Part shown: one piece after another, positions 1 to 50,322 of the stretch | Layout: each line of letters starts with the position of its first letter | Numbering within the stretch: the stretch's first letter is position 1 | From: Deltaproteobacteria bacterium | Lineage (GTDB): Bacteria > Desulfobacterota > Desulfobulbia > Desulfobulbales > SURF-16 | Assembly (NCBI GenBank): GCA_024277655.1 | Contig: JAJRUT010000077.1 | Location: 3,867-67,866, forward strand | DNA: 64,000 nucleotides | Direction of reading: 5' to 3' | The notes under the pieces: model-generated | What the model saw: the letters and a program-made list of their open reading frames with translations, nothing else | Databases searched by the model: none | What the model was told of the DNA's origin: nothing | Translations under genes and position numbers: made by a program

Positions 1-271
1 GGCCTGAGCTGTAACCGCTAACCACATCTGGCTGGCAATAATCCAGTGCCTCAAGTGCCATGGCAAGGCTAAGGTGAAATACACCGAGCTGGGCTGACTT
101 GTCCGAGTCGATGCTGGACTGCTGAAAATGACGGAGCGCTGGTGTTTCCGGCGAGGCGAATTTATCATAGGTGGCTGCGATGGATGTACTAAAAAAACCG
201 CTCAGGGGTGTTTCTGGTACTGCCCCCTGACCGGGGAAGAGAAAAGCTATGTTTGTATTGGTTTTGGCCAT
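1..271 (-). CDS. FabD-like acyltransferase (malonyl-CoA:ACP transacylase family), N-terminal 90 codons only; the gene runs off the window
   Basis: Not in the ORF track because it is truncated. Hand translation from ATG at 271: MAKTNTNIAFLFPGQGAV...LAMALEALDYCQPDVVSGYSSG. It has the FLFPGQG motif. The position of the FabD GHSxG nucleophile elbow reads GYSSG. Confidence 0.6.
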   Translation of the reverse strand, partial: MAKTNTNIAFLFPGQGAVPETPLSGFFSTSIAATYDKFASPETPALRHFQQSSIDSDKSAQLGVFHLSLAMALEALDYCQPDVVSGYSSG

Positions 272-385
272 GATATTTTAGATAAAGAGTAGTGCTAACA
301 ACGATGTATAGAAGCTAAAGGAGGTAAAGAAAATAGAGAATGATAATGACAGTATCTTCTGTTATATTTTTTCCCAGCGGTGTCC

Positions 386-564
386 GGATTTTTATGCCCC
401 TTTATTCCACTTGGACTCCACAGCCCTTGGTTTTTAAATATTTTTGTCTCCCATTTTTACCATGCGACTCCCATCGCAAAGACAGATAAAAATGGGAGAC
501 AAAAATATTAAGAAAATACTACGGGATGTACAGAATTACGATCCATAAAGGGGCATAAAAATCC
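386..564. repeat. Nested perfect inverted repeats in a 400-bp intergenic gap
   Basis: Outer arms GGATTTTTATGCCCCTTTAT (386-405) / ATAAAGGGGCATAAAAATCC (545-564). Inner arms AATATTTTTGTCTCCCATTTTTA (437-459) / TAAAAATGGGAGACAAAAATATT (487-509). No ORF inside. Confidence 0.85.
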
Positions 565-672
565 TCGGGCACGTTTCAAGCAGGACATCACTGATTCTTT
601 TATCCTATTTTTTCAGGCGAAGCGATAATGTCTAAGTCAGACAGGTTATAAGGGCGGGAAGAGTTATAACTC

Positions 673-2136
673 TCATCTTTGCCAGTATTCCTTTTTAAGT
701 ATGATTTCCGCCGGTACCTCTTGAAAATTATCCTGGATCCAGACCATGTTCCGGGCCTCGTAATAGGCGTAGCGCATAATTAGTTTATAGGCCATGCGGA
801 TAAACTGGTTGGTGGAAAAGAACATCTTCCAGAAGATTATTGGCCTGGTGTAGTATTTCCTAAGATATTTCTTTTGCAGGGCAAGGATCTCCTCCCCGTT
901 ATAGGCGTTGTTTTTAATCACCGGATTCATAAAATCGTACTTTGCAAAATCCCGCTCCTCGATGCGGTTTTCTTCCTCGCAATGTTTATAATAACGGGTG
1001 CCGGGCAGGGGTGTGGTGAGGGTCATCACCAGAAAATCGCCAAGTTCTGTGGCAAAATCAAAGATGGCGGCCAAGGTCTCCTCGGTGTCATCCACGTCAC
1101 CGAACATGACATTGGTCATCACCATGATACCGTGGGATTTAAGGATTTCCGCCGCCTCCCTGATCTGTTCAGCCGATTGATTCTTGGTGTAGTTTTTAAG
1201 GGCTGCAGGCGAAATGGACTCCACTCCAAGCATCACCTCGTAGAGGCCAAGTTTGCGAAATTCTTTTAGTAAATCCTTGTCGCGCAGGATGTCCTTAATC
1301 CGCGATTGAAACCAGAAATCACATTTTAGTCCTGAGTTGCCCAGAGATTCAAGAAAATCCTCGTTGCGTCTGCGGGTCTGGTTAAAGGAGTTTTCATTGA
1401 AGACAAAGAGGGATTTGCCGTATTTTGCCTGGAGCATCTCCATCTCTTTGACCACAAGATGTCCCGAGCGCCCGCGCCATTTGGCGTTCCATAGCTGTGA
1501 TTCCGAGCAGTAGGAGCAATGATCGCCACAACCGCGACTGGTGGAAATGCCGGTCATCCGGGTGCCCATCCCATGTAGATAATAGGTGGGGTTCATGATA
1601 TCCAGCAGGTGATAGCCCGGCATGGGCAGACTGTCGAGATCGGCAATCTGGGGTCTTGATTGGGTAAATTTTATTTCACCAGCCTTTTTATAGGCGATGC
1701 CTTTAATGGTGCAGTCGCTGTTCTTTTCAGGGAGATTGTTGAGTAACTCTGTAAAGGTAAGCTCTCCTTCGCCAAGGACGATAAAGTCAACCTCAGGGGC
1801 CTGAGCGAACATTACCTCATAGTTCAGGGTGAAATGACCACCGCCACCGATGATAATTGCGTCCGGTAAACAGCGGCGCACCTGGCGCACGGCGTGGATG
1901 GCGTCTTTGTGGAAGGTTGCGGCCTGGCAGGTCACGCCAACCACATCGTATTTTCCGGCCTTTAGTTTTTGCTCAAGATCAGACCAGGGCTGTTTAAGGG
2001 TGGTGGAATCCAACACCTCAACAGCAAAACCTTCCCGTTCAAGGTAGGCGCCAAGAGCCATAAGGCCGGGGGATGGCATCCACATTCTGAGGGCGGCAAA
2101 AATCTGGTGGGGTGGGTCAAGTAGGAGTATTTTCAC
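673..2136 (-). CDS. B12-binding domain radical SAM protein (class B rSAM), about 490-510 aa type
   Basis: CX3CX2C motif in RGCGDHCSYCSE. N-terminal Rossmann-like B12 region (VVGVTC...IIIGGGGH). Paralog of 40909-42447. The longest ORF reaches 2205, but a GTG at 2136 (VKILLLDPPH) matches the short N-termini of the paralogs and cuts the overlap with the upstream gene to 20 nt. Confidence 0.85.
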   Translation of the reverse strand: MKILLLDPPHQIFAALRMWMPSPGLMALGAYLEREGFAVEVLDSTTLKQPWSDLEQKLKAGKYDVVGVTCQAATFHKDAIHAVRQVRRCLPDAIIIGGGGHFTLNYEVMFAQAPEVDFIVLGEGELTFTELLNNLPEKNSDCTIKGIAYKKAGEIKFTQSRPQIADLDSLPMPGYHLLDIMNPTYYLHGMGTRMTGISTSRGCGDHCSYCSESQLWNAKWRGRSGHLVVKEMEMLQAKYGKSLFVFNENSFNQTRRRNEDFLESLGNSGLKCDFWFQSRIKDILRDKDLLKEFRKLGLYEVMLGVESISPAALKNYTKNQSAEQIREAAEILKSHGIMVMTNVMFGDVDDTEETLAAIFDFATELGDFLVMTLTTPLPGTRYYKHCEEENRIEERDFAKYDFMNPVIKNNAYNGEEILALQKKYLRKYYTRPIIFWKMFFSTNQFIRMAYKLIMRYAYYEARNMVWIQDNFQEVPAEIILKKEYWQR

Positions 2137-3028
2137 TGCTGTAGGTGCTCCAATAGTCAAAGAATTGATACCATTGATCAGGGTGTTTGCGGATATTCTT
2201 TTCAAACACCGAGGCCAGTTCCTGGGTCTTTTGGGCGATTAGTTCATCGTTACTGATGCCTGGTTGCCTGGTAACCATAATGGGTTTTTCCATCCAGGCC
2301 TGATATTTATTATCCGGACGCAGGGTTATAAACACCGGGATAATCGGCGCTCCGGTGGCCTGGGCCAGGACAAAGGCGCCGGATGGGAAGTAGACCTTGC
2401 GACCAAAAAAAACAACCTCACTCTTCTTGCCACCCACGAGCCTGTCACCGAGCATGGCGATCACCTGATTATCCCTTAGCAAACGGGCCATCTTTAAAAT
2501 CGTGCCGTGGTCATTTGGGTCAACATGGATGGTCTTGATGCCAAGTGAGCCCCGAACCTCATCCCGGTAGTCCTGCACCATATCTTCATCGTCTTTTAGG
2601 GTGAGGGCGTGGATCGGGCAACCGCGCAGGGCAAAGGTGACACCGCCAAGCTCCCAGTTGCCGAGGTGGGGGGTGATGAGAATTGCGCCATTGCCGTCTG
2701 CTAATGCCTTTTCTATGTACTCTGTGCCGATTTCACTCGCCACTGTTTCCTTATAATTTTCTTTGCTGAGATCATGGATCAGGACATAATCCCGCAGATA
2801 CAAGCCGTAGTTACGAAAGAGCTGAATCACCGTCTCTTTGACCTGGGGATCATCCTCGGCTAGTCCCATGACCTGGGCCGTATTGGTGTGCAGTACCCTC
2901 TGTTTTGAACCCCATAAATAGTAAAGACAGACACTTACCACCTTATTCTGTACAAGCTGCCACCAGCGCGGGGCCGTTTTGGCAAAGATATAGGTGAGGA
3001 GGAGGTATGGTTTTTTGGGGAAGAGCAT
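2117..3028 (-). CDS. Lysophospholipid / lipid A-type acyltransferase (LpxL/HtrB family)
   Basis: 303 aa. PHLGNWELGG matches the HX4(D/E) acyltransferase motif of the LpxL family. The size is typical. Confidence 0.7.
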   Translation of the reverse strand: MLFPKKPYLLLTYIFAKTAPRWWQLVQNKVVSVCLYYLWGSKQRVLHTNTAQVMGLAEDDPQVKETVIQLFRNYGLYLRDYVLIHDLSKENYKETVASEIGTEYIEKALADGNGAILITPHLGNWELGGVTFALRGCPIHALTLKDDEDMVQDYRDEVRGSLGIKTIHVDPNDHGTILKMARLLRDNQVIAMLGDRLVGGKKSEVVFFGRKVYFPSGAFVLAQATGAPIIPVFITLRPDNKYQAWMEKPIMVTRQPGISNDELIAQKTQELASVFEKNIRKHPDQWYQFFDYWSTYSSENTPT

Positions 3029-3118: not shown

Positions 3119-4597
3119 CTACTGAGCCTTTTTAGAAATCGTATTGGCGGCAAAACTGCCCGATAGTCCAGCCCCGACGATGCCGTGGGCGGGGCGGGTA
3201 TAATGGCCGATCCACAGCAGGTTTTTGAGCCTTGTCTGGGTAGGGGGCCTGCGGGGGCCGACCTGGTTCATGGCGGCATCAAGCCCGTACATGGCCCCTT
3301 CAATATTACCGGTGCGAAGGTGCAGGGTATGCGGGGTGGCGTATGTGTCTAAAACAACATTACTACCAAGGTTTAGGTCTGTTTTATCTAGAATGACCTT
3401 AAATACTTTTTGCTGAAGTCTTTTGATGTTTTCAGGGCTACCCTGGTCTTTGAATTTGTCAAGATGGGGGGCATGCACCAGAATTTTCAAACTGTGAAAA
3501 CCCTTGGGGGCCAGGCTTTGGTCGAGTAGGGATGGGGTGGTAATAACCAGATGCAGCCCCGCGTCCATATTGCCCTGTTCGATGGCCTGGCATTCCTGCT
3601 CAGGATTCTTGCCGGTGTGGAGCGAGACAAAATAGGGCCAGTCTTTGGGGAGGGCTGATTCTTTGATGCCGAGATAAAATAGCACGGCTGAGGGCGACAC
3701 GGTGTACTGATCCAGGTCAAACATTTTGGTGTAGAGTTTGGTGGAACCGGTCAGTAGCTCTTGGCCAATATATGGGTTCATGGCGCCAATATACCAGTCT
3801 GCCCGATGGGTATGCCCATCGCTTGTGACCACACCCTGCACCTGTTGCCCATCTGTTTTGATCTCCTGAATAGTACTGTTTTTAATGGTGATGCCACCGT
3901 TATCTGTAATGGCTTGGGTCAAAATGTCGGTGAGTTGTACCATACCACCCTTGGGGTAAAATACGCCATCCTTCAAGACCTTGGCCCAGAGTACGGCTAC
4001 AAAAATATAGGAGAGCTTTGAGGGGGGCAGGGTGCTTGGGAGAGCCGACAGGCCATGGTAAATCTCGTCGTTATCGCCGAAAAAATGGTGGAGGATCGCG
4101 CCGTGGGAGTGGCGGGCACATTTAAACAGGGTACGGTACAGGATGGGGAGTAGGAACTTTTTCCAGATGGGCGCCCGTTCAAAGGCCAGAAATTCCTGGC
4201 CTAACCGGGCGGTGAGTTTGGCGTATTCCTCCAGGGACACCGCATGTTGGGGGAACTCTTTTTTGAGGGTTTCAACGTAGGCCAGCGGGTTTTTATAATA
4301 GAGATTTAGTTCATAGGTCGGATAGATATTACGGATGGCGGGAATCTGGATAAAATCAAGTTTTTCTGCAAGGCCAATCTCCTGAAATATCTCGAAAAAC
4401 TCACTGCCAGGCAGGCAGGCCGCAAGGAACGAGCCGGTGGCATCAAAATAGAAGTCGTCACGCCTAAAGCCACTGACATAGCCCCCGGTTTTCTCCTGTT
4501 TTTCGAGGAGCGTCACCCGAAATCCCCGTTTGGCAAGGAGCGCCCCGGCAGAAAGTCCTGCCATGCCGCCCCCCATAATCAGTACCGATTCAGTCAT
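3119..4597 (-). CDS. FAD-dependent oxidoreductase, phytoene desaturase (CrtI)/amine oxidase-like
   Basis: N-terminal dinucleotide fold IMGGGMAGLSAGALLAKRGFRVTLLEKQEKTGG. About 490 aa. C-terminal GHYTRPAHGIVGA. Paralog of 39428-40903. Confidence 0.75.
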   Translation of the reverse strand: MTESVLIMGGGMAGLSAGALLAKRGFRVTLLEKQEKTGGYVSGFRRDDFYFDATGSFLAACLPGSEFFEIFQEIGLAEKLDFIQIPAIRNIYPTYELNLYYKNPLAYVETLKKEFPQHAVSLEEYAKLTARLGQEFLAFERAPIWKKFLLPILYRTLFKCARHSHGAILHHFFGDNDEIYHGLSALPSTLPPSKLSYIFVAVLWAKVLKDGVFYPKGGMVQLTDILTQAITDNGGITIKNSTIQEIKTDGQQVQGVVTSDGHTHRADWYIGAMNPYIGQELLTGSTKLYTKMFDLDQYTVSPSAVLFYLGIKESALPKDWPYFVSLHTGKNPEQECQAIEQGNMDAGLHLVITTPSLLDQSLAPKGFHSLKILVHAPHLDKFKDQGSPENIKRLQQKVFKVILDKTDLNLGSNVVLDTYATPHTLHLRTGNIEGAMYGLDAAMNQVGPRRPPTQTRLKNLLWIGHYTRPAHGIVGAGLSGSFAANTISKKAQ

Positions 4598-6995
4598 CCT
4601 GGTGTTCCCTTAGGGACAGGAGGGCGGGGAGGGATACGGCTGAAAAGAAGAAGCAGGAGGAGACGCCGATGATGGTGAGCATCCCCATATCAGCCAGGAC
4701 ATGATACTTAGCTAGTGCCAGTGAGCCAAAGCCGAGGCAGGTGGTGAGTGAGGTAAGGAGGATGGAGCGTCCGGTGGAGGTAATGGTTGTTTTGATGCAC
4801 CTGCTCTCCCGGTAGCGATCCATAATATGGATACCATCATCAAGACCAATACCGATTAAAATGGGCAGAATAATAAAGTTGATAAGGTTAAAACTGATCC
4901 CCAGCCAGCCCATAAGACCGGTGGTGACGATCACGCCAAGTATCATTGGTACAAGGGCAAGAAAAGAGGTTTTCAGACTTTTGAAAAAGACGAGAAGAAT
5001 GGTCACCACAATGACAAAGGCCAGACCAACCGTTTGCACCATATTACCTTTTGCTGTCTCCATAAGGGACGATAAGGCCATATCGAGGGTCACCACCATG
5101 ATGTCCTGATCCTGCCAGAGTTTTTGCAGACTAGCTATCACCTCTGGCGATCTGCCATTTACCCAGGTGATGCCTATAATCTTGCCGTTTTCTTCAATAA
5201 AGAAGCGTTGATGGAGTTTTGCACTGGAAAGGGTTGTGGAGGGAGTTCTAGCCCGATGGCTGATTAGTGTTGTTAATGATGGGAAGGACTCGGTCGTAAG
5301 CTTGTATTTAGCAAGGGCAGAGGCCAGATTTTTCTGGCCTGTCTCGCTGATCGTAAAGGCTGTGGGGGAGGTCACTGTGGTGAGGGAGGCAAAACTTGCG
5401 ATATTATCGCCAAGTCCTGCAAGATCCGCATCAATCCGGGCTGATTTTTGCCAGAACTCTTCCTTTGTCGAGGCCTCAAAGCTAACGAAGATACCGGTAA
5501 TACCCTTTGAAAAATGATTAAAAATAGCAGAGCGTACGGCAAGGGCCTCAAGGCCTTCCGGGTGGAGGGCCTCAAGTGATCGTTCAAAATGGATATTTTT
5601 TAGGCCAGGGGTGGCAAGAAGGAGGATGATTCCGGATAGGATAAGGAGTTTCTTTGGGTGCTGATCAACAAAATCTGCCAGTAATCCCGTGCCGAGGAGG
5701 GAAAAACCTTGGTGTTTCTTGCCGGGATTACGTCTGTCGAGCCAGTTTAGCCAGGCTGGCAGGGCCAGGAGGATGGCCAGCAGGGAGAAGAACAGGCCAA
5801 GGGCCACCAGCCAGCCAATCTGTTGGAGAACCGGGGTGCCGGTGAAGGTCAGGACGATAAAGGCGGTGAGACTGGTGAGTCCACCTGCAAAAACGGCAGA
5901 TCCGGTACGAAATATTGCCCGGTGGGTGGCCTCTTCAGCGCTTGCGCCAAGGGCGCGTTCGGAGCCGTAGCGATCATATACATGGATGGCAAAATCAACC
6001 CCAAGGCCAAGCACCACCGCTGAAAAGGCCACTGAGATAATATGTACCTGACCGAAAAGAACAGCCATCACCCCAAGGGCCAATTGCAACCCCACGGCAA
6101 GGGGCAGGATAATAAACACAAGCACTGAAAAACGTCTGTAGGCCAAGAGAAAGAGCAGGCTGATACCGAGTATGGAGCCGATCATACAGGTGATGATATC
6201 CCCCTTCATCACCTGTTCTTCCTGGGCGGCAATAACGTAGCCGCCGGTAATGCCGATTTTAAGATCGGCAAAGTCGTGGAAAACCGTGTGGCAGGCAACA
6301 ACAAGTTCCTTGGCGTGTTTCTGTGGGTTGTCGGACGTTGCCGGTGTGCCGATGACAATGATTGCCTCACCATCGGCCGCCATCATCTCCGGACGCGTGG
6401 CAAAGTCCATCGAGCCTTGCATGGATCTTAGTTTGGCAATGAGAAAACGGCGCAGATTAAGTGGGTCTTTGACCACCATCGCCGCAAGATCGCCACTTCC
6501 TGGGGTGGCAAGGAGCGCCAGTGAACGGCGGATCTCCCGGTCAAGATCCTTTGGGGAATTAAAAAAACGGGAAAGTTCGGCATGGTCTGCACCATTTAAA
6601 AATAGGCCAGGGTCAGCAAGGTACTTATCGAGCAGATGACTGAATTCCGCTGAACTTACCGCCTCGGCCTGGAGCATGGTGAGCCGTTTAAAGGCAGGCC
6701 CATCACCTGTTTGTATATGTTTAAGCCGGGTAATAAGCTCTGTGGTCTGGTTGATCAGCCCCTCTTCATCACCCCCTGCACCCTCCACCAGAATATACAC
6801 CTTCTCCTGCCCGTCTGAAGAGGTGACCGAGTGGGATAGGAGCTTAAAGGCGCGATTATCCTGGGGTAAAAGGCCAAGAATATTCTGCTCAAATTTTAAG
6901 AGACCGGTGATAAGTACAGCCAAAAGGAGAACTGCACAAAATCCGAGCAGAACACGTCCCGGATGCCGGGTAAGAAGTTTGGTGGCTTTATTCAT
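4590..6995 (-). CDS. MMPL/RND-superfamily membrane exporter
   Basis: 801 aa with two blocks of multiple hydrophobic helices separated by large soluble loops. This architecture matches the predicted exporters of aryl-polyene-type clusters. 8-nt overlap with the downstream gene. Confidence 0.65.
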   Translation of the reverse strand: MNKATKLLTRHPGRVLLGFCAVLLLAVLITGLLKFEQNILGLLPQDNRAFKLLSHSVTSSDGQEKVYILVEGAGGDEEGLINQTTELITRLKHIQTGDGPAFKRLTMLQAEAVSSAEFSHLLDKYLADPGLFLNGADHAELSRFFNSPKDLDREIRRSLALLATPGSGDLAAMVVKDPLNLRRFLIAKLRSMQGSMDFATRPEMMAADGEAIIVIGTPATSDNPQKHAKELVVACHTVFHDFADLKIGITGGYVIAAQEEQVMKGDIITCMIGSILGISLLFLLAYRRFSVLVFIILPLAVGLQLALGVMAVLFGQVHIISVAFSAVVLGLGVDFAIHVYDRYGSERALGASAEEATHRAIFRTGSAVFAGGLTSLTAFIVLTFTGTPVLQQIGWLVALGLFFSLLAILLALPAWLNWLDRRNPGKKHQGFSLLGTGLLADFVDQHPKKLLILSGIILLLATPGLKNIHFERSLEALHPEGLEALAVRSAIFNHFSKGITGIFVSFEASTKEEFWQKSARIDADLAGLGDNIASFASLTTVTSPTAFTISETGQKNLASALAKYKLTTESFPSLTTLISHRARTPSTTLSSAKLHQRFFIEENGKIIGITWVNGRSPEVIASLQKLWQDQDIMVVTLDMALSSLMETAKGNMVQTVGLAFVIVVTILLVFFKSLKTSFLALVPMILGVIVTTGLMGWLGISFNLINFIILPILIGIGLDDGIHIMDRYRESRCIKTTITSTGRSILLTSLTTCLGFGSLALAKYHVLADMGMLTIIGVSSCFFFSAVSLPALLSLREHQDD

Positions 6996-13376: not shown

Positions 13377-13378
13377 TG

Positions 13379-16605: not shown

Positions 16606-16869
16606 ATGTCTGACCAAGTACTTGTTGATGAATTAAAGCAGCTCGTTGTAACCGCTCTGCGGATTGAAGATTTTGATCCGCAGGAAATTAAAGATGAAGA
16701 ACCTCTGTTTGGTGATGAAGGACTCGGCCTTGACTCGGTGGATGCCCTGGAACTTGTTGTTCATATTGAACAGCAATACGGGATTCAGATTGAGGATGAG
16801 GAGGTGGGGCGCAAGGCCTTTGCCTCGATCAATGCTCTGGCTGAGTTTATTGCTGAGAAAAAAGGCTAA
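16606..16869 (+). CDS. Acyl carrier protein
   Basis: 87 aa and acidic. Phosphopantetheine attachment motif GLDSVDALEL. Confidence 0.85.
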   Translation: MSDQVLVDELKQLVVTALRIEDFDPQEIKDEEPLFGDEGLGLDSVDALELVVHIEQQYGIQIEDEEVGRKAFASINALAEFIAEKKG

Positions 16870-42472: not shown

Positions 42473-42853
42473 TTATGCCCTTGATTCACATAACTGCCCA
42501 TACACCCGCTTCCACTCTTGCACGGCAATGAGTGTCTGGCCCCGGCGGAGAAAAACCCTTAGCTCGCAGGCCACCATGGCGGGTTGCCCTTTATCATTAT
42601 GGTAATCCACCTGGATCACGTAAAAGATGGATGAGTAGGTCTTCTTTTGAAAGGCGCGAAGGTTTGTAATCTGTGCCAGGGGGATGTTGAGGTTGATGGC
42701 GGCTGTCTTTTTAGTTGCCGGGATTTTGAGGGCAAATCCTGCCGGTGACAGGGTGGCTTTACCTAGTTGTTGGCGTTCGGGTAAACCAAGGGTCGAGGCG
42801 TGGAAAATTATTTTTGCGCAGATTGTGTTTTCAGGTTTTGAGAATAGGCCCAT
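42473..42853 (-). CDS. Hypothetical protein (126 aa)
   Basis: Clean ORF with no motif I recognise. Divergent from the rSAM gene at 43025. Confidence 0.35.
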   Translation of the reverse strand: MGLFSKPENTICAKIIFHASTLGLPERQQLGKATLSPAGFALKIPATKKTAAINLNIPLAQITNLRAFQKKTYSSIFYVIQVDYHNDKGQPAMVACELRVFLRRGQTLIAVQEWKRVYGQLCESRA

Positions 42854-44413: not shown

Positions 44414-45578
44414 TGGCCCGTTGTTCAAGTAGAGCTGTAATCTGGGCGTAGATATTCTTATGCGTTTTCTTTAACTTGCCAATGGCAGTTCTGCCGTCAA
44501 GCTGAGGCCAGAGGGCAGGATCAGCCCCTGGCGGCCAGTGATCCAAAAGATGTACCGGGATATCCTCGTCCTGTAATTGGTAGTCGTCTGTGGTGTCAGC
44601 CCCTACCGAGTCATCACCGTAGTAGGCAAAGAGCGGTGCGGGGCTGCCATATTTAAACTCGTGGGCGTATCTGTAGGCCGAAAGACCGGCCTTTGTTCCT
44701 TCACCCAGGGCAACCACCGCCGAAAATGGTGGGCCGCCACAATCCCCGGCAATATATAACCCCTGATGATTCTGTTCTTGCAGATAACCGTTGGCTCTAG
44801 CCACTAGCCCTTGTGGCAGGGCGGGACGCTTGAGTTCCAGTGAGTTAAATTCAATGACGATACGGTCGGTTTCCAGACTGACAACTCCCTTCTCAGTTTG
44901 GATGTTTACCCTCATTTCTTTCGCATTTCTGTCAATATGATCCAGCGTTCCCCATATAGTATTTTCGTTACTTTGCTGTGTTTTTCCGTCAATAAGCAGG
45001 GTCGCCCCTGGGTTAATTTCAAGAATCATTTCTCTTAGTTGCAGGAGATGCACACCGCCAAGGATCAGCGGTTTTTTACTTGCGCTAAGCTCTTTTTTTA
45101 AGATGGCCCCGATATTGGCCCGGTTACCAAATGTTGCCGTGACGCCCTTTTGCCAGAACGAATGTATATTTCGTAAATCCAGCATTCCACAGGCCATAAT
45201 GACACTGATACTGCTAATGGTTGTGCCATCGGCAAGGGTTGTTATGAAGAGGGATTCTTTTTTGGCAACGGAGACAACCGTCTGGGTGATAATGGGGGCA
45301 GGGTAGGTTGCAAGATCCTTTTTGAGGCGTGCAACCAGTTCTCCGGCCGGAAATGCCAGGGATGGGCCGGTGAGAATAGAGTTACCAAGTTTTGCCAGCC
45401 CCCCCAAAGGGCCTGAGTTGACCAGAACCACCGAGAGTGGAATTGGATTCATGGTTTTCAGCCAGCGCAGTCGGGTTAAGGCCGCAAGACCAGCCGGGCC
45501 ACCGCCAACCACTAATACATCCACATCCCATGGTTGGCTCCCTGACCAGGGAAAAGTGTTTGTTGTGGGTTTAGCCAT
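44382..45578 (-). CDS. FAD/NAD(P)-binding oxidoreductase (thioredoxin-reductase-like fold) with C-terminal extension
   Basis: VLVVGGGPAGLAAL dinucleotide motif, later GLYIAGDCGG. No CxxC redox pair noticed. Confidence 0.55.
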   Translation of the reverse strand: MAKPTTNTFPWSGSQPWDVDVLVVGGGPAGLAALTRLRWLKTMNPIPLSVVLVNSGPLGGLAKLGNSILTGPSLAFPAGELVARLKKDLATYPAPIITQTVVSVAKKESLFITTLADGTTISSISVIMACGMLDLRNIHSFWQKGVTATFGNRANIGAILKKELSASKKPLILGGVHLLQLREMILEINPGATLLIDGKTQQSNENTIWGTLDHIDRNAKEMRVNIQTEKGVVSLETDRIVIEFNSLELKRPALPQGLVARANGYLQEQNHQGLYIAGDCGGPPFSAVVALGEGTKAGLSAYRYAHEFKYGSPAPLFAYYGDDSVGADTTDDYQLQDEDIPVHLLDHWPPGADPALWPQLDGRTAIGKLKKTHKNIYAQITALLEQRAITLCPRRDHT

Positions 45579-46068
45579 GGTGGTTAACCTGAAACAGGTT
45601 GTCGATGGAGTTTAATAAACCACCCTGACTGATGATTTTCCGGGCGAAGGGGGAGGGCGGGGCAAGTTCAATATGCTGGCCCTCTTGAGCGCTTATTGTC
45701 TGGTTCTCTTCGTCATAGATAATGGTAACCTTTGAGCCTTCTTGCCAGGGTATTCGGGAGGTAATGGTGGCGATGGGGATACCGAGATTTACCATATTTC
45801 GGTAAAAAATACGGGCAAAGGAGAGGGCGCAGACAAGTTTTATTTTGCGATCGGCAAAGACCCTGGCCGTGACCTCCCTGGATGAACCACAGCCAAGATT
45901 ATGGCCCGCTATGATCACGGAACCTGGCTCAATGGTCTTGGCCCACTCAGGGTTATAACCATGCAGCAGACCCTGTTTACGGATATTTTTATCTAGGCTA
46001 AAGAAATTTGGCGGATGGATGAGATCGGTGGAAATATTCTCTCCCACCACGTAGGCAAAACGGTTCAT
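45571..46068 (-). CDS. Aconitase-family small subunit (LeuD / homoaconitase small subunit-like)
   Basis: 165 aa. GHNLGCGSSRE matches the LeuD G-x-NFGCGSSRE motif. Confidence 0.8.
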   Translation of the reverse strand: MNRFAYVVGENISTDLIHPPNFFSLDKNIRKQGLLHGYNPEWAKTIEPGSVIIAGHNLGCGSSREVTARVFADRKIKLVCALSFARIFYRNMVNLGIPIATITSRIPWQEGSKVTIIYDEENQTISAQEGQHIELAPPSPFARKIISQGGLLNSIDNLFQVNHHG

Positions 46069-47300
46069 GGGGCAAACTCCCTGGGGTCGGTGATATACCC
46101 TGTTATAGCACTTGCCGCAGTAACAAGGGCCGAGGCCAGATAGGTGTCACCGGGGCCGGTGCGCCCAGGGAAATTGCGATTTGAGGTGGCGATCATATTC
46201 TGGCCTGAACCAATGATGCCCTTATCAATCCCGCCACATGGCCCACAGGATGGGGCATCGACAATGCCTCCGGCCTTGATGATCTCGCTGATATAGCCAG
46301 CTTCAAGGGCGTCAAGATACACTTTTTTAGAGGCTGGAATAACCACAAGGCGTACATTGGTTGCCACCTTTTTGCCTTTGATTATGGCAACCGTATCGGC
46401 AATATCCTCAAGCCGCCCGCCGGTACAGGAGCCGACAAAGGCTTGGTGGATGGGGATGTGTTTAAGATCTTTGGCAGGTTCCACACACCAAGGGGCGGGG
46501 GGGATGGCAACAAGCGGTTCGCTGGGTATCTGGATGGTTTCCCTGGCATCATAGTGTGCGTTGTGATCGGCAAGGATGGCTGGTGTTTTAACTCCTTTGG
46601 CCTGTAAAAAGGTTGCCGTGATTTCATCGTGAACAATGGTGAAAAATGCTGCTCCCATCTCAGCCCCCATACAGGCCAGGGAAAAGCGTGAGTCCATACT
46701 GAGTTTGGTTGTGGTTGCATCAACACATTCAAAGGCGTAATCAGCATAGGTTGTGGTGCCAAGGGTGTGGAGGATTTGCAGGGCGATGTCTTTGCCCCTG
46801 ATAGTGGTCGTCTGATTTCCCTGGAGTTTAAGCTTGAGGATCTTTGGTGGCGCAAGCCAGGTGAATCCTGTGACCATGGAAAAAAGAATGTCGGTGGAGC
46901 CAAGTCCACAGGCAAGATTGCCCAAGGCTCCGGCCATAATGGTGTGGGAGTCAGCACCAATAATAAATTGTCCGCAACCCACCAGCGGATCCTCCACCAT
47001 TATCTGGTGGCAGATGCCGGTGAAGGGTGAACGGCGGATCCCGGCAAGTTCAAGGGTGAAATCCAGATACTGTTGCAATATTTCAGCTCGTTCGGCAGTG
47101 GCAGGGGGGACAAAATGATCAGCGGCAGCAAGGATACGCTCAGGGTGGGCAAGGGGTTTGCCAAGTTTCCTGAATGGTTCAATAAGAAGCGCACCTGTGG
47201 CATCGTGAAGGAGTAAGTGGTCGTAGGATATAAGCAGGTGGTCGCCATCCTGCCTTAGGGTGTGGCGCGCAAGGATTTTACTTGTCAGAGACTGCGCCAT
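46065..47300 (-). CDS. Aconitase-family large subunit (LeuC / homoaconitase large subunit-like)
   Basis: 411 aa. GADSHT, GSCTGG and CGPCGG Fe-S ligand motifs. Confidence 0.8.
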   Translation of the reverse strand: MAQSLTSKILARHTLRQDGDHLLISYDHLLLHDATGALLIEPFRKLGKPLAHPERILAAADHFVPPATAERAEILQQYLDFTLELAGIRRSPFTGICHQIMVEDPLVGCGQFIIGADSHTIMAGALGNLACGLGSTDILFSMVTGFTWLAPPKILKLKLQGNQTTTIRGKDIALQILHTLGTTTYADYAFECVDATTTKLSMDSRFSLACMGAEMGAAFFTIVHDEITATFLQAKGVKTPAILADHNAHYDARETIQIPSEPLVAIPPAPWCVEPAKDLKHIPIHQAFVGSCTGGRLEDIADTVAIIKGKKVATNVRLVVIPASKKVYLDALEAGYISEIIKAGGIVDAPSCGPCGGIDKGIIGSGQNMIATSNRNFPGRTGPGDTYLASALVTAASAITGYITDPREFAP

Positions 47301-48493
47301 CAGGAGACTCCTTCCACCATTGACATAAACAGATCATCGGAGAGGCCTGCATGTGACTTGTAAAAAGAGCGACATTTGACAATGAAATCTCTAAGGTCTG
47401 TGCCCTTGTGTTTTTCCTGGAAGCCTTTTATTTGGGTGAGAAGCCGCTCTTTTTGCTCCCCGGTTAAGCAGATCTTCTTTTGGTCAAGGAGAAATTCGAG
47501 GTACTCCATCCCCGTATGTTTGCCCAGGGCAAAGGTGCGGGACTGACCGACCTGTTCCGGGGCAAATGGCTCGTAGCTCCCCTTCTGGCGCAGAAGGGCG
47601 CGGGCGTGGAGCCCTGATTCACACTTAAAGGTGTTTGAGCCGGAGACAGGTTTAATCGGCGGAACAATCATGCCGGAAATCTCTTCAACCAGGTGGCATA
47701 TCTCTACAAGTTTATCGGTGTTTATGTCGATGTTCAGGCCAAGGAGGTTCTTTATGCCAATGCTGACCTCTTCAATGGAGGCGTTGCCGGCTCTCTCGCC
47801 GATGGAATTTATGGTTCCTGAAAAATAGACGGCACCGGCCTCGATGGCGGCCAGTGAATTTGCGGTGGCAAGGCCGTAGTCATCGTGACAGTGGATACCA
47901 AATTTTATTTTCGGAAAGGCTTTTACCAGTTGTGCTACTTTTTGCTGCATTCCCCAAGGGGTGAGGGCACCAACACTTTCGGCAATGATAAACGAATCAA
48001 CACCGAGAGCCTGAAGTTTTTCGATGGTGTCTTCCTCTGCACCACTTCCGGCCCGTCCGGCATCTTCAAGGACAACCATTACCTTAAGATTGATGCTAAA
48101 GGCATGGGTTACAGCATCGACAATAATGGTTTGGAACTCGGCAAATGATACGGAGCGGATAAGCCCACTTAATATTCGTGAGATGGGAAAGAAGAGAAAG
48201 ATACCAACTGCACCAAGCTCCTTGGCCTGACTTATCTCATGGTTGTCCGGACGCACTGTGGCAAAGATTTCAGCCTTAAGTCCGGCCCCGGCAACAGCCC
48301 TGAAGGAATCTTGTTCCTCCTTTGAAACAATGGGGAATCCCGCATCAAGAATAGTGACACCGGCCTTGCTTAAGGCTGTGGCGATGCGAAGTTTGTCATC
48401 TTTTGTGAAGTAAACTCCGGCTGCCTGTTCACCATCACGCAGGGTTGAGTCGATGGTTATAATGGTGTGCGGTCTGTTTTTTTTGCCGGTCAT
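47300..48493 (-). CDS. Homocitrate / 2-isopropylmalate / citramalate synthase family enzyme
   Basis: From the ATG at 48493: ...IDSTLRDGEQ, and HCHDDYGLATANSLAAIEAG (DRE-TIM metallolyase motifs). About 400 aa with no LeuA-type regulatory domain. Confidence 0.8.
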   Translation of the reverse strand: MTGKKNRPHTIITIDSTLRDGEQAAGVYFTKDDKLRIATALSKAGVTILDAGFPIVSKEEQDSFRAVAGAGLKAEIFATVRPDNHEISQAKELGAVGIFLFFPISRILSGLIRSVSFAEFQTIIVDAVTHAFSINLKVMVVLEDAGRAGSGAEEDTIEKLQALGVDSFIIAESVGALTPWGMQQKVAQLVKAFPKIKFGIHCHDDYGLATANSLAAIEAGAVYFSGTINSIGERAGNASIEEVSIGIKNLLGLNIDINTDKLVEICHLVEEISGMIVPPIKPVSGSNTFKCESGLHARALLRQKGSYEPFAPEQVGQSRTFALGKHTGMEYLEFLLDQKKICLTGEQKERLLTQIKGFQEKHKGTDLRDFIVKCRSFYKSHAGLSDDLFMSMVEGVS

Positions 48494-48608
48494 GTGAAAG
48501 ATAAAATTGAGAGTAACTCTTATAAAATAAGAGGGTGCCATGGTGCATGGAAGTTGTTAATAATAGCTCAGTAATAGCTAATTTGAAAGGTAAAAAAAAG
48601 GTGGGTGT

Positions 48609-49409
48609 ATGTTGAAAAATAAGTCAGTGCCATGGGGCAGATTGAAACCTGTTTTAGCCTATGTGCTTATGCTGTTTCTGATTTACGGGTGTGCAGCAAA
48701 ACCCCTTGATCTTTCCCTTGTCCCGACAGAGGGTATGCAGGTTAAGGTCAGTCAAAAACGAGCGCAGGGTAGCGTTGGAGTGGTGCCATTTGTGGACGCA
48801 AGACCCGTTCGCCATGGTAGTGATAATGCCAAGTGGAGGGGGCTTATCCCCGGCATGTTGTGGATTGAGATAAGTTCTGATATTCCTGAGACCTATACGG
48901 CGTTTTCCCATTATGAGTCAAAGCCCCTTGAGCGGGCAAGCTCCAGGGCCGCAGTTGATATTCTTAAACGTTCAGGTCTGTTTGCCGAGGTAATTGATCT
49001 GCAAAAACAGCCCTTGGCCAGCCCGCAATACCGCTTAACTGGCGTGGTGTATAAAACCATGGTCAATGAGACGGGCTATTACTATGGCTCTTCTATCTAT
49101 GCCTGGCTGCTCAGGGTTATCGGCTTGCCCTATGTCTCCTTTGAGGTGGAGTATCATATCGGTCTCTCATTGGCGGAGGCAGATTCCGGTAATATTCTAT
49201 GGCAGACAAAGATTAAGGGAGCGCGTGAGGATAAGTTTTATTCGGTATATAGTGTCAGTAATGGGCGTGATGGCAAACATGTTATTGCCTGGAATATGGC
49301 CGATATCTTTGCCGAGGAGTTTAGTCTGCATGTTGCTGAGTTGCAGGCTGTTTTAGCTGAAAAAGGGTCGGCGTATGATTCTAATGGGCTTAAACTTTTT
49401 GTCAGATAA
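48609..49409 (+). CDS. Putative lipoprotein, unknown function
   Basis: Signal peptide with the lipobox-like LIYGC. Confidence 0.45.
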   Translation: MLKNKSVPWGRLKPVLAYVLMLFLIYGCAAKPLDLSLVPTEGMQVKVSQKRAQGSVGVVPFVDARPVRHGSDNAKWRGLIPGMLWIEISSDIPETYTAFSHYESKPLERASSRAAVDILKRSGLFAEVIDLQKQPLASPQYRLTGVVYKTMVNETGYYYGSSIYAWLLRVIGLPYVSFEVEYHIGLSLAEADSGNILWQTKIKGAREDKFYSVYSVSNGRDGKHVIAWNMADIFAEEFSLHVAELQAVLAEKGSAYDSNGLKLFVR

Positions 49410-49596
49410 GGTCTGGGGAATTGTCAGTAATGTATGGCTGTTCAAGGCTTGTTTTTTTCGTTTTACATGGATGGACAGCGTTTCTCTCTTTATCCTGCTC
49501 ATCCTGTCCTGAATCCTGAATCCGAATAATATTCAAGTCCAATAAGAGCAAAAAAACGACGTTAATCTATCAATAGAATGCAAGTGGGAAGGTGGA

Positions 49597-50322
49597 ATGC
49601 AAGCAAAGAAAATAGTTTTAGTCACCGGAGCAAGCCGAGGGATTGGCGCGGCTATCGTCAAACGAATAAGCCTAGAGTATGAGGTTTGGCTAAATTACCG
49701 ATCTGATCATGATTCGGCCAGAAATATTCATGCAGATATTGAAACCCAGGGCGGGGTGTGTAAACTACTGCCCTTTGATGTTGCCGATGAACAGAAGGTG
49801 AATGGGGCAATCAAACCACTCCTTAAGGATAATAAGGTGTATGGCCTTGTCCATAACGCTGGTATCACTAGGGACACCCTGGTTGCTACCATGACCAGAG
49901 TTCAGTGGGATGAGGTCATGGGGGTGCATCTAACCGCCTATTTTCATCTGACTAGGGTTTTAGCGCGAAATATGCTCTTTGCTAGGGAGGGCAGGGTGAT
50001 TGCTATCTCATCGGTGTCGGGTGAAACAGGGCAATCCGGTCAGGTGAATTATTCGGCAGCTAAGGCAGGACTCATCGGTGCCTCAATGGCCTATGCCCGC
50101 GAGGTTGCCCGGAGAAATGTTCTGGTTAATGTCGTGTCGCCGGGGCTTATTGACACGGAAATGACTGAGGGGCTTTCCAAAGATGCCATGCTTCCGGCTA
50201 TTCCCCTGGGGCGGTATGGAACCTGTGATGAGGTTTCAGGGCTAGTGAATTTTCTGCTGGGACCGGAGGCTTCTTACATTACAGGCCAGGTACTAAGCGT
50301 CAATGGTGGTTTGTATATGTGA
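49597..50322 (+). CDS. fabG: 3-oxoacyl-ACP reductase (FabG-like SDR)
   Basis: VLVTGASRGIGAAI, NAGITRD, YSAAKAG. Confidence 0.8.
   Translation: MQAKKIVLVTGASRGIGAAIVKRISLEYEVWLNYRSDHDSARNIHADIETQGGVCKLLPFDVADEQKVNGAIKPLLKDNKVYGLVHNAGITRDTLVATMTRVQWDEVMGVHLTAYFHLTRVLARNMLFAREGRVIAISSVSGETGQSGQVNYSAAKAGLIGASMAYAREVARRNVLVNVVSPGLIDTEMTEGLSKDAMLPAIPLGRYGTCDEVSGLVNFLLGPEASYITGQVLSVNGGLYM

Follow-up and report, generated by a model that had tools for sequence, protein, structure and literature searches.

The ~50-kb gene locus described here, carried by a Desulfobulbales-type, sulfate-reducer-type anaerobe, is in our view likely to be a dedicated multi-operon system making a specialised ACP-bound acyl or polyene lipid, separate from the cell's own fatty acid synthesis (FAS). 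It is a member of the "ladderane-like/aryl-polyene-like" FAS II plus radical SAM (rSAM) family, whose first described loci were those of Desulfotalea and Geobacter. Pfam scans of the window (the whole 64,000-nucleotide stretch analysed) returned a domain content complete for such a pathway (Table 1) and recovered all genes named in the initial annotation, displaced by ~100 nt at most and including its eight B12-type rSAM enzymes and one SPASM rSAM. The genes overlap or abut in operons that form two divergent arms, beginning at 15602 and 15883; terminators follow 27858 and 22757, the latter a terminator-like site (22928-22948) 3' of MT1. The left end lies outside the window, as the locus continues past position 1; the 305-aa ortholog of the truncated FabD-like acyltransferase in a relative (L041) matches Acyl_transf_1, and downstream of it lie an ATP-grasp gene and two small ORFs.

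Table 1. Features of the locus, with positions in the window and the matches or motifs that define them.
Feature	Position	Strand	Evidence
FabD-like acyltransferase, N-terminal 90 aa	1..271	(-)	Translation FLFPGQG...GYSSG; truncated by left window edge
rSAM1, BchE-like B12-binding radical SAM	673..2205	(-)	Pfam B12-binding + Radical_SAM; motif CGDHCSYC
LpxL/HtrB-type lipid acyltransferase	2117..3028	(-)	Lip_A_acyltrans 8e-33
PDH1, CrtI/phytoene-desaturase-like flavoenzyme	3119..4597	(-)	Amino_oxidase + NAD_binding_8
MMPL/HpnN-like RND lipid exporter (predicted)	4590..6995	(-)	MMPL 1e-35
rSAM2, TIGR04190-like B12-binding radical SAM	7113..8699	(-)	Pfam/NCBIfam
U32-family protein	8880..10049	(-)	Peptidase_U32 6e-12; weak TrhP match
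SDR1, short-chain dehydrogenase, candidate ketoreductase	10085..10816	(-)	adh_short_C2 9e-37
LuxC-type acyl-CoA/ACP reductase	10940..12327	(-)	Pfam LuxC profile positions 3-143 + 153-401 in two overlapping ORFs
LuxE-type acyl-protein synthetase (adenylating enzyme)	12327..13481	(-)	LuxE 6e-14; NF052244 58 bits, cut-off 550
FabZ-like (FabA/Z) hotdog protein	13379..13813	(-)	FabA-like domain
rSAM3, DUF4070-group B12-binding radical SAM	14268..15602	(-)	Pfam/NCBIfam
DUF4410 lipoprotein, first gene of plus-strand operon	15883..16545	(+)	DUF4410; lipobox ALNGC
ACP, dedicated	16606..16869	(+)	Passes NF006617 (75 bits, cut-off 70)
4HBT/YbgC-type thioesterase	16893..17450	(+)	4HBT_2; homologs 144-147 aa; true start probably 17001
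GT2 glycosyltransferase, polyprenyl-phosphate-sugar-synthase-like	17447..18241	(+)	Glycos_transf_2 2e-23
KS1 ketosynthase	18180..19394	(+)	Pfam; complete triad C157, H290, H327
CLF1, chain-length-factor-like KS homolog	19339..20556	(+)	Pfam; without catalytic triad; true start probably 19387
rSAM4, "lipid biosynthesis B12-binding/radical SAM protein" type	20557..21918	(+)	Pfam B12-binding + Radical_SAM
MT1, SAM-dependent methyltransferase	21888..22757	(+)	Methyltransf_23 1e-27; weak CMAS, UbiG matches
Lineage-specific insertion: respiratory genes + one extra rSAM (rSAM5)	23280-31350		Not seen in relatives
Non-rSAM part of insertion	23280..29491		Pfam scans
rSAM5, DUF4070-group B12-binding radical SAM, lineage-specific extra paralog	29947..31350	(-)	Pfam
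TIM-barrel, divergent triosephosphate isomerase paralog	31538..32221	(-)	TIM Pfam match; without catalytic Glu
SPASM-domain radical SAM protein	32331..33650	(+)	Radical_SAM + SPASM
rSAM6, DUF4070-group B12-binding radical SAM	33977..35347	(+)	Pfam/NCBIfam
Sm_multidrug_ex small membrane protein	35335..35811	(+)	Pfam; equivalent position in L001, L002, L017, L086
MT2, UbiE/BioC-like SAM methyltransferase	35855..36535	(+)	Pfam/NCBIfam
LolA-like periplasmic carrier (predicted)	36536..37186	(+)	LolA 1.5e-6
Fused KS-CLF	37293..39425	(+)	Pfam; N-terminal half triad C164, H292, H327; C-terminal half none
PDH2, CrtI/carotenoid-isomerase-like flavoenzyme	39428..40903	(+)	Pfam/NCBIfam
rSAM7, BchE-like B12-binding radical SAM	40909..42447	(+)	Pfam/NCBIfam
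Conserved 126-aa protein	42473..42853	(-)	No match in Pfam or NCBIfam; equivalent position in L001, L005, L006, L017, L086
rSAM8, DUF4070-group B12-binding radical SAM	43025..44413	(+)	Pfam; B12 match just under Pfam cut-off
Four-gene block: Pyr_redox-type flavoprotein, aconitase-family small + large subunits, HMGL-like (homocitrate/isopropylmalate synthase family)	44382..48541	(-)	
Lipoprotein, no family match (Pfam, NCBIfam)	48609..49409	(+)	Lipobox LIYGC; kept in L005, L006
SDR2, FabG/FlxB-like ketoreductase	49597..50322	(+)	KR domain

As judged from sequence, the locus is not the housekeeping FAS, because its KS, ACP, FabZ and FabG proteins all fall short of the NCBIfam equivalog thresholds. 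On the fabF model KS1 reached 346 bits and the fused KS-CLF 318 bits (cut-off 494), the ACP failed the AcpP model (38 bits, cut-off 70), the FabZ-like protein scored 73 bits on the FabZ equivalog (cut-off 113), SDR1 was under the cut-off on FabG models and SDR2 obtained 259 bits on FabG (cut-off 273). A housekeeping identity of the KS, ACP and DH genes had been set beforehand as a refutation of the initial annotation, whose reading the scores favour. The Cys-His-His triad is complete in both KS units and missing in both CLF units, and at the residue level each KS/CLF pair combines an active KS-like unit with an inactive one; the closest PDB matches were 9s5h_B for KS1 (38% identity) and 9s5h_C for CLF1 (54 bits). 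The dehydratase and the LuxC reductase proposed initially are both present, but the former lacks the catalytic His ("HFP" residues deleted relative to PfFabZ, others and amxFabZ) and the latter is frameshifted here by a 1-nt deletion near 11735, as seen in the alignment with intact orthologs of two relatives (L041 and L033). Because of this missing His, and because no enoyl reductase was found in the locus, the reductive cycle cannot be deduced from the genes.

All of the rSAM proteins (9/9) carry the CxxxCxxC motif, eight of them combining B12-binding with Radical_SAM domains and one Radical_SAM with SPASM. The rSAM equivalog scores were all far under cut-off, among them rSAM1 on TIGR02026 BchE (246 bits, cut-off 481) and the SPASM protein on the AhbD and NirJ models, and the closest solved structures match weakly (AprD4 65 bits, TokK 46 bits). 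In the cross-locus identity comparison, conservation within the locus is highest for the radical enzymes, led by rSAM7 (79-94% identity where KS-CLF is 50-72%), with rSAM1 at 78% and rSAM2 at 81-83% in L041 and L033, and rSAM8 at 69-87% in relatives. No ortholog of rSAM5 was found in any relative locus compared, and this gene is bracketed by ~75-nt direct repeats (29604-29676 and 31407-31478). As to the other tailoring genes, PDH1 scored 141 bits on crtI_fam (cut-off 238), and the U32 protein, in which C179, C183 and C215 are invariant among 20 homologs alongside a C341-x4-C-x2-C-x2-C352 motif, is a candidate O2-independent hydroxylase.

These genes cluster, although their order varies, in at least ten genomes from Desulfobulbales, Desulfobacterales, Desulfovibrionales, Geobacterales and Nitrospirota, and the grouping is therefore more than chance. 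Conserved co-localisation was found in L001, L002 and L007 (the last two Desulfobulbaceae), L005, L006, L041 and L033, in L017 of the Desulfobacterales, in the Nitrospirae MAGs L030 and L031, and in L029 and L035. Cultured Oceanidesulfovibrio indonesiensis (Desulfovibrionales) has a DUF4410-like lipoprotein gene (a 40% ortholog, upstream of ACP) and ACP through rSAM8, then LuxE, LuxC and SDR1, and Geomobilimonas (Geobacterales) carries a compact form of the set that includes three rSAMs. The rSAM genes of relatives lie with KS, MMPL and LolA, which agrees with the synteny anticipated in the initial annotation. The locus may have been merged from modules that yield more than one product, because parts of the set occur alone: KS-CLF, PDH and rSAM in Desulfobacterium, and U32 with an rSAM7-like gene in ~17 MAGs. 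Gene comparison shows the whole set kept as a unit across orders, and a single dedicated lipid pathway is the reading we prefer.

The locus is split because of the lineage-specific insertion, whose non-rSAM part encodes a DUF2339-like membrane protein, a tetrahaem cytochrome c, a 4Fe-4S protein, NrfD and a TlpA/ResA-like protein and includes a 0.9-kb ORF-free stretch. This part is absent at that position in L001, L002, L006 and L086, and its genes are probably outside the pathway. Whether the four-gene block is a member of the cluster is uncertain: it adjoins the cluster in L005 and L006, Pyr_redox and Aconitase_C adjoin it in O. indonesiensis, and the block is not present after rSAM8 in L001. 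The TIM-barrel paralog has GY[T/G]P in place of AYEPVW in the window and in L001, and is under cut-off on all TIM equivalogs.

The KS/CLF/ACP core and the LpxL-type acyltransferase, GT2, 4HBT, LolA-like and MMPL genes resemble aryl-polyene/flexirubin loci, in line with the composition described initially. Flexirubin LolA2 (54 bits, cut-off 125) and FlxB (263 bits, cut-off 340) were the top models for the LolA-like protein and SDR2, both under cut-off, as were the LpxL/HtrB-type acyltransferase on all lipid A and PIM acyltransferase equivalogs, GT2 on PpgS and AglJ, and the MMPL protein on HAE3 (214 bits) and HpnN (201 bits). No aryl-forming enzyme was found in the locus.

The parallel to anammox ladderane loci holds in part. 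rSAM4, whose relatives are named "lipid biosynthesis B12-binding/radical SAM protein", matches TIGR04072 rSAM_ladder_B12 from end to end and falls just short of its threshold (337.9 bits, cut-off 360). The fused KS-CLF, CrtI-like PDH and B12-rSAM genes follow the gene order of anammox cluster I, the fused KS-CLF being collinear with FabF2 (36%) plus FabFmut (25%). However, identity is only 25-37% (27% between PDH2 and the cluster I PDH), no nearer than ordinary FabF, and amxFabZ keeps the catalytic His. The gene combination had already been reported: Rattray et al. 2009 (PMC2649909) noted, alongside the anammox "ladderane" genes, loci of this kind in D. psychrophila (Desulfotalea), Geobacter and Pelobacter, and D. 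psychrophila produced no ladderanes (PMC2649909). antiSMASH tags such clusters "ladderane", and "ladderane"-type BGC calls are routine in Desulfobacterota (bioRxiv 10.1101/2022.12.20.521206).

Except for the active/inactive KS pairing, which is visible in the residues themselves, we infer the pathway steps from family membership. The FabD-like acyltransferase would load malonate onto the locus's own ACP, and the LuxE-type adenylating enzyme would supply or re-activate a carboxylic acid. Two condensing systems, KS1/CLF1 and the fused KS-CLF, would then build the chain, on which an SDR ketoreductase would act. Tailoring without oxygen would involve the eight cobalamin-type rSAMs (four subfamilies), the SPASM rSAM, the U32 Fe-S protein as candidate hydroxylase, the two SAM methyltransferases, and the two CrtI-like flavoenzymes for desaturation, saturation or isomerisation. 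Release may be achieved by the 4HBT thioesterase or the LuxC reductase, attachment to a membrane anchor by the LpxL-type acyltransferase and GT2, and export to the outer membrane by the MMPL pump, the LolA-like carrier and lipoproteins. The roles in methylation, cyclisation and hydroxylation extrapolate from distantly related proteins, and the methylated, cyclised or cross-linked character first proposed for the product is purely conjectural. The product is probably an acyl or polyene lipid tailored by radical chemistry and anchored in the outer membrane, and the window locus is an unusually rSAM-rich member of an already reported cluster family.

The window was parsed into approximately 46 long ORFs, and scanning them against Pfam and NCBIfam recovered all genes named in the initial annotation. 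The GC content of the window is about 0.45-0.54, and the genes frequently overlap or abut each other; CLF1, for instance, stops at 20556, one position ahead of the rSAM4 start at 20557. Coordinates are collected in the table below, in which rSAM1 to rSAM8 are the B12-binding radical SAM proteins, SPASM-rSAM is the ninth radical SAM enzyme, and PDH1 and PDH2 are CrtI-like flavoenzymes. Rfam and tRNA scans of the window gave no matches, cobalamin riboswitches included. The hybrid histidine kinase of the right flank, which adjoins SDR2, is conserved in the homologous locus L006 and partly in L005.

Features of the window and their positions
Feature	Position	Strand	Content
Minus-strand arm	1-15602	-	from the 5' end: rSAM3, 455-nt gap, FabZ-like, LuxE, LuxC, SDR1, U32, rSAM2, MMPL, PDH1, LpxL-type acyltransferase, rSAM1, FabD-like acyltransferase (AT; gene extends past window edge)
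PDH1	3119-4597	-	CrtI-like
U32 protein	8880-10049	-	
SDR1	10085-10816	-	
LuxC	10940-12327	-	two overlapping ORFs
LuxE	12327-13481	-	
FabZ-like protein	13379-13813	-	
Divergent arm	15883-22757	+	DUF4410 lipoprotein, ACP, 4HBT thioesterase, GT2, KS1, CLF1, rSAM4, MT1
KS1 and CLF1	18180-20556	+	separate pair
MT1	21888-22757	+	methyltransferase
Insertion	23280-31350		DUF2339-like membrane protein, tetrahaem cytochrome c (4 CXXCH), 4Fe-4S protein, NrfD, TlpA/ResA-like protein, rSAM5
Respiratory-type module	23280-29491		
ORF-free stretch	27850-28900		
Terminator	27910-27939		
Direct repeats	29604-29676; 31407-31478		bracket rSAM5
Ahead of second block		-	rSAM5, TIM-like gene
TIM-like gene	31538-32221	-	triosephosphate-isomerase paralog
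Second plus-strand block	to 44413	+	SPASM-rSAM, rSAM6, small membrane protein, MT2, LolA-like, fused KS-CLF, PDH2, rSAM7, 126-aa ORF (-), rSAM8
SPASM-rSAM	32331-33650	+	
MT2	35855-36535	+	methyltransferase
Fused KS-CLF	37293-39425	+	
PDH2	39428-40903	+	CrtI-like
rSAM7	40909-42447	+	
126-aa ORF	42473-42853	-	
Aconitase/HMGL block	44382-48541	-	Pyr_redox flavoprotein, aconitase-family small and large subunits, HMGL-like synthase
Right end	to 50322		after HMGL-like: lipoprotein, FabG/FlxB-like SDR2
SDR2	49597-50322		
Right flank	50344-63382		unrelated genes: hybrid histidine kinase, CopA-type P-type ATPase (two HMA domains), zinc-ribbon/ParA-like ATPase flanked by two PilZ proteins, PRPP-synthetase-like gene, YggS, TatD, CoaBC

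The proposed co-localisation of the radical SAM genes with the KS, MMPL and LolA genes is kept in relatives from the Desulfobulbales, Desulfobacterales and Desulfovibrionales, with the gene order rearranged. That the content is conserved while the order is rearranged across these orders argues strongly for one functional cluster. The locus is real and conserved, and it is an unusually rSAM-rich representative of a family known from comparative genomics. By name, the closest loci belong to Desulfobulbaceae, Desulfurivibrionaceae or Thermodesulfobacteriota. In a Desulfobulbaceae MAG (L002/L007) the genes from the thioesterase through rSAM7 are contiguous, and a Desulfobacterales MAG (L017) carries the same genes in a different order. 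The left arm from LuxC to rSAM1 is syntenic in the loci L041 and L033; past rSAM1, the locus in L041 extends over the AT, an ATP-grasp gene and two small ORFs and then gives way to unrelated genes, so that approximately 3 kb of the locus are missing from the window. In the cultured Oceanidesulfovibrio indonesiensis (GCA_007625075, contig QMIE01000002, about 40.6-69.6 kb), genes for a lipoprotein, ACP, thioesterase, GT2, KS, CLF, rSAM4, MT1, SPASM-rSAM, rSAM6, a membrane protein and MT2 are followed by LolA, KS-CLF, PDH, rSAM7, a hypothetical protein and rSAM8, then by LuxE, LuxC and SDR1, and lastly by Pyr_redox and Aconitase_C genes on the minus strand. Homologs of the fused KS-CLF were found in Desulfobulbaceae, Thermodesulfobacteriota, Desulfobacterium, Dissulfurirhabdus and Oceanidesulfovibrio, and none of them came from anammox bacteria. 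The Geobacterales isolate Geomobilimonas luticola (L085) has a compact version with three rSAMs, which is syntenic with the window and has 12 gene types in common with it; more variants occur in Nitrospirae and unclassified MAGs.

Several independent pathways with separate products could also lie side by side, namely an APE-like core, a KS-CLF/PDH/rSAM module and a LuxE/LuxC/U32/rSAM module. The KS-CLF/PDH/rSAM trio stands alone in Desulfobacterium TRIP AH-1, a U32 gene and an rSAM7-like gene occur by themselves among unrelated genes, the core of Geomobilimonas is devoid of the fused KS-CLF and PDH, and unrelated genes interrupt the locus in the window. However, the modules are reunited in Desulfobulbales, Desulfobacterales and Desulfovibrionales despite their differing order, and for its two KS systems the window yielded a single ACP and a single AT. 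We consider separate pathways conceivable, though unlikely, and retain the reading of a single cluster.

One of the interruptions can be traced by comparison with the closest relative (L001), where the order is CLF1, rSAM4, MT1, TIM-like gene (-), SPASM-rSAM and onwards to rSAM8, followed by unrelated genes. Since MT1 directly precedes the TIM-like gene in L001, the segment from 23280 to 31350 represents an insertion. Its respiratory-type module lies inside the cluster only in the lineage of the window. The respiratory genes were considered as an electron supply for the rSAMs, an idea rejected because they are absent from all relatives. After NrfD, a strong terminator is followed by 0.9 kb without ORFs or Rfam matches and then by the TlpA/ResA-like gene, and when the ORF-free stretch was scanned permissively against Rfam, nothing but the terminator hairpin matched. 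No ortholog of rSAM5 was present in any fetched locus, and the direct repeats on both sides of this gene (approximately 75 nt) are 79-84% identical; a recent duplication or insertion of rSAM5 is suggested.

Aryl-polyene (APE) clusters contain a KS with a CLF-like partner, an ACP, a KR and a hotdog protein without an ER, accompanied by a 4HBT thioesterase, an LPLAT/LpxL-type acyltransferase, a GT2, a LolA-like protein, an MMPL protein and a methyltransferase. These and the flexirubin clusters (ApeA-R, Flx/Dar) were reportedly described by Cimermancic 2014, Schoner 2016 and Grammbitter 2019. The window has all of this in common with them, from the KS with its CLF-like partner, the dedicated ACP, the KR, the hotdog protein and the lack of an ER to the 4HBT thioesterase, LpxL-type acyltransferase, GT2, LolA-like protein, MMPL exporter and methyltransferase. 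The locus might thus be a bona fide APE/flexirubin-type pigment cluster with anaerobic decoration of an aryl head and a polyene tail, in which the U32 protein would hydroxylate, UbiG/UbiE-like enzymes would methylate and the B12-rSAMs would C-methylate; such a pigment would be a sub-case of the explanation favoured here. The best NCBIfam matches of the LolA-like protein and SDR2 are indeed flexirubin LolA2 (LolA2_flexi) and flexirubin FlxB, MT1 and MT2 weakly match UbiG and UbiE models, and U32 is the family of UbiU/V. However, both flexirubin matches are far from the cut-offs (54 versus 125 bits and 263 versus 340 bits), and the scanned window ORFs revealed no aryl-starter enzyme, be it a chorismate lyase, a TAL/HAL or another aryl-forming enzyme, the sole adenylating enzyme found in the window being of the LuxE type. 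In a PDB comparison, both KS were closer to FabF (264 bits) than to 6qsp (163 bits), which we take to be the structure of the APE ketosynthase ApeO. Moreover, nine rSAMs, the U32 protein, the CrtI-like enzymes and LuxC/E are additions unlike anything in the APE/flexirubin set, and we know of no APE cluster described so far with rSAMs. An APE pigment is therefore improbable in our view. Of the aryl-polyene-like scaffold seen in the initial annotation, the composition of the anchoring/export genes and of KS/CLF, ACP and KR fits, but the aryl-forming enzyme and matches above the flexirubin cut-offs are absent: the locus is APE-like in its logistics and not a demonstrated member of the APE clusters.

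Cluster I of anammox bacteria (Kuste3603-3608) comprises amxACP, amxFabZ, amxFabF2, amxFabFmut, a PDH and a B12-rSAM, with FabF2 and FabFmut forming a KS/CLF-like heterodimer (PMC10139942; bioRxiv 10.64898/2026.05.19.726425). Among solved structures, PDB 9s5h matches KS1, the fused KS and CLF1 best. Its identity as the anammox heterodimer was confirmed by a Val in place of Cys163 in chain C, the residue listed for Kuste3606 in Rattray's table (PMC2649909). Our anammox reference was the 9-kb metagenome contig Ga0209619_10005301 (L087; GC 0.40), which is 91% identical to 9s5h chain B and encodes a short ORF in the ACP position, FabZ, FabF2, FabFmut and PDH before it ends ahead of the rSAM. The parallel to ladderane clusters drawn from the sequence at first holds for the gene order. 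Positions 37293-42447 reproduce that of cluster I (active KS, inactive KS, PDH-like enzyme, B12-rSAM), with both KS being fused here, and the fused KS-CLF and PDH2 are collinear with L087 5080-9013. A relatedness closer than that to FabF, in contrast, was not seen. Identities to L087 amount to 36% (KS), 25% (CLF half) and 27% (PDH) for the collinear part, 37% for KS1 and 28% for the FabZ-like protein, and the window ACP had no match in L087 at E<0.05. Dozens of ordinary FabF proteins whose genes adjoin FabG (L098-L166) match KS1 at 33-39% identity, and the anammox resemblance is therefore architectural, not orthologous; KS1 and KS-CLF were rejected as amxFabF2 orthologs, being equally distant from ordinary FabF. 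Ordinary FabF genes share 41-47% identity with the amxFabF2 of L087, which is less similar to the window KS.

The FabZ-like protein was called a dehydratase in the initial annotation; the protein is present, but the "HFP" holding the catalytic His is deleted, as it is in the Geomobilimonas counterpart (L085 14556-14969). The anammox amxFabZ (L087 4625-5077) retains GHFP with the catalytic His. True ladderane lipids with concatenated cyclobutanes, made by anammox chemistry, would agree with the collinear order, with 9s5h as the best PDB match and with the closeness of rSAM4 to TIGR04072, but are very improbable given the low identities, an ACP that is not amxACP-like, the His-less FabZ-like protein and a host that is not an anammox bacterium. 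Desulfotalea-type evidence points the same way, since D. psychrophila carries such loci and has no ladderanes (PMC2649909), and ladderanes are reported from anammox bacteria only. The window locus very probably does not serve ladderane synthesis, and it is not a canonical APE cluster.

The possibility that the KS, ACP and DH genes are the housekeeping FAS set had been named as a counter-test to the cluster, and here the window proteins stayed below all FAS equivalog cut-offs. The fabF model is the top NCBIfam model for KS1 and for the KS half of the fused protein, at 346 and 318 bits versus a cut-off of 494. The FabZ-like protein reached 73 bits versus 113 for FabZ, the ACP 38 bits versus 70 for AcpP (NF006617 was passed), and both SDRs remained under the FabG cut-offs, although SDR2 is nearly FabG-like. 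The Cys-His-His triad is complete in KS1 and in the N-terminal half of the fused KS-CLF and absent from CLF1 and the C-terminal half, so both KS have inactive partners. FabH, FabI, AcpP, an enoyl reductase and the fab operon order were not found in the window locus. Considering in addition the translational coupling of rSAM genes to KS/CLF genes and the set kept complete across orders, housekeeping FAS genes adjoined by unrelated radical SAM genes through chance are hardly credible. An analogy to cispentacin (Amc) was treated as a lead only, the weak AmcF, AmcB and AmcE matches all lying below those of FabF, ACP and FabZ. A RiPP-type locus with B12 and SPASM radical SAM enzymes acting on a peptide, for which B12-rSAM C-methyltransferases and SPASM maturases would be typical and which several RiPP rSAM models (ApyD, rSAM_ocin_1) match weakly, is very improbable. 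These matches are far under cut-off, and the ORFs of at least 100 aa included neither a precursor-peptide family nor a set of peptidase and transporter. Leader-peptide families did not match the conserved 126-aa ORF either, and the rSAM genes are interleaved and coupled with ACP, KS, CLF and lipid-export genes.

CxxxCxxC is present in all nine rSAMs of the locus, and the eight B12-rSAMs are old paralogs from four subfamilies. rSAM1 and rSAM7 are BchE-like (BchE is the best model for both; 40% mutual identity), rSAM2 is TIGR04190-like, rSAM4 is of the TIGR04072 type, and rSAM3, rSAM5, rSAM6 and rSAM8 form a DUF4070 group with 34-42% mutual identity. rSAM4 scored 337.9 bits against TIGR04072 "rSAM_ladder_B12" (cut-off 360), with model positions 1-440 of 443 aligned, and NCBI gives the name of this family ("lipid biosynthesis B12-binding/radical SAM protein") to its homologs P0250 (57%) and P0357 (43%). 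All eight weakly match HpnJ or HpnR. They have the B12-binding and radical SAM architecture in common with BchE, HpnP/HpnR and GrsA/B (review PMC13459092), to which they can be likened as enzymes functionalising C-H bonds independently of O2, and differ from BchE/Hpn-type enzymes in scores of approximately half the equivalog cut-off or less. The nearest solved rSAM structures are too distant to be informative. For ketoacyl lipids, rSAM chemistry is proposed only (ladderanes), or known for Jaw5 (2026 review, PMC13459092). The radical enzymes are the best-conserved genes of the locus: rSAM7 keeps 79-94% identity in genomes where KS-CLF reaches 50-72% and PDH2 38-66%, and the values for the U32 protein and rSAM2 are 81-83% against 56% for MMPL. 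The stand-alone pair of U32 and rSAM7-like genes (46-47% and 56-59% identity) was observed in approximately 17 Syntrophaceae/"Deltaproteobacteria" MAGs (L009-L027), and L024 has the row U32, rSAM2-like, U32, rSAM7-like, methyltransferase.

Several further genes are peculiar. LuxC, listed as a gene at first, is present but not intact: alignment with the intact orthologs of L041, L033 and O. indonesiensis located a 1-nt deletion near 11735, and the split is either a pseudogene or an assembly error. The TIM-like protein and its counterpart in L001 (3215-3907), the only other cluster in which this paralog is found, keep Asn, Lys and His and miss every TIM cut-off. Both have GY[T/G]P in place of AYEPVW, the triosephosphate isomerase motif with the catalytic Glu, which is therefore absent. 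The U32 protein has invariant Cys clusters; UbiU/V, TrhP and RlhA act in hydroxylation. The 126-aa ORF has no family match. Five relatives have it in the same place, separating rSAM7 from rSAM8 (32-78% identity), and a homolog with 30% identity follows the rSAM of the stand-alone trio in Desulfobacterium. The aconitase/HMGL block, whose HMGL-like protein is of the homocitrate/isopropylmalate synthase family, is without a LeuB-type dehydrogenase. It also adjoins the cluster in L005 and L006, as does its Pyr_redox and Aconitase_C part in O. indonesiensis (L086 21091-22310), and does not follow rSAM8 in L001. The recurrence hints that the block belongs to the cluster despite the case of L001, and it could supply a 2-oxoacid-derived starter.

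A "striking synteny" of Kuenenia clusters with loci of D. psychrophila (DP1853-1860 and DP2405-2406), Geobacter and Pelobacter was described previously, and ladderanes were not found in D. psychrophila (Rattray et al. 2009, PMC2649909). Compared by their published description, those loci and ours share hosts among anaerobic "deltaproteobacteria", divergent FabF paralogs of which some are inactive, rSAMs of the B12 type and others, flavoenzymes resembling amine oxidase/phytoene desaturase, an enzyme akin to acyl-CoA ligases, a GT, an oxidoreductase and a membrane protein of the MMPL-like type, so that one window locus matches the 2009 list of gene classes in full. In comparison with them, gene content is richer in the window and in its relatives as far as O. 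indonesiensis, with nine rSAMs, a fused KS-CLF, U32, LuxC, the TIM-like protein and perhaps a block for 2-oxoacid elongation. In Desulfobacterota, clusters of this kind receive the antiSMASH label "ladderane" (bioRxiv 10.1101/2022.12.20.521206), and a Cariaco Basin study that reported antiSMASH "ladderane" BGCs in Desulfobacterota and other phyla left their function open. In the literature searched, no paper assigning a product to the cluster family was found, nor any on TIGR04072, on ladderane in Geobacter or on aryl polyene in Desulfovibrio.

Direct evidence for the window locus covers its gene content, the pairing of active with inactive KS and its conservation, and only these three; beyond them, we infer a working model. 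The AT would load the dedicated ACP, LuxE may activate a carboxylate, and the two KS/CLF systems would elongate the chain with a KR and no ER. PDH-like flavoenzymes might alter the unsaturation, and the B12-rSAMs, SPASM-rSAM and U32 protein would contribute O2-independent C-H chemistry, with methylation, BchE-like oxidation/cyclisation and hydroxylation as candidates. The chain would be released by the thioesterase or LuxC, anchored by the LpxL-type acyltransferase and GT2, and exported via MMPL, the LolA-like protein and lipoproteins. This model has its weak points in that the hotdog protein has no catalytic His, LuxC is broken and the locus is modular.

As a more speculative and rather doubtful extension, the core of KS-CLF, CrtI-like enzyme, rSAM7 and rSAM8 might perform a novel radical C-C- or ring-forming reaction on an ACP-bound polyunsaturated chain in cultivable sulfate reducers, yielding a new class of cyclised and/or polymethylated outer-membrane lipids. 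If true, this would offer a genetically tractable model for the KS/CLF-PDH-rSAM chemistry of anammox bacteria, which have no genetic system and whose rSAM resisted heterologous expression (PMC10139942). Our results weaken the claim that only ladderane producers have the KS/CLF-PDH-rSAM architecture, and antiSMASH "ladderane" calls in Desulfobacterota should not be equated with ladderane synthesis. With up to nine rSAMs around a KS/CLF/ACP core, the family is widespread in anaerobic Desulfobacterota. The value of the locus lies in the cultured carriers identified here: since a near-complete locus is present in O. indonesiensis and a compact one in Geomobilimonas luticola, the chemistry is directly testable.
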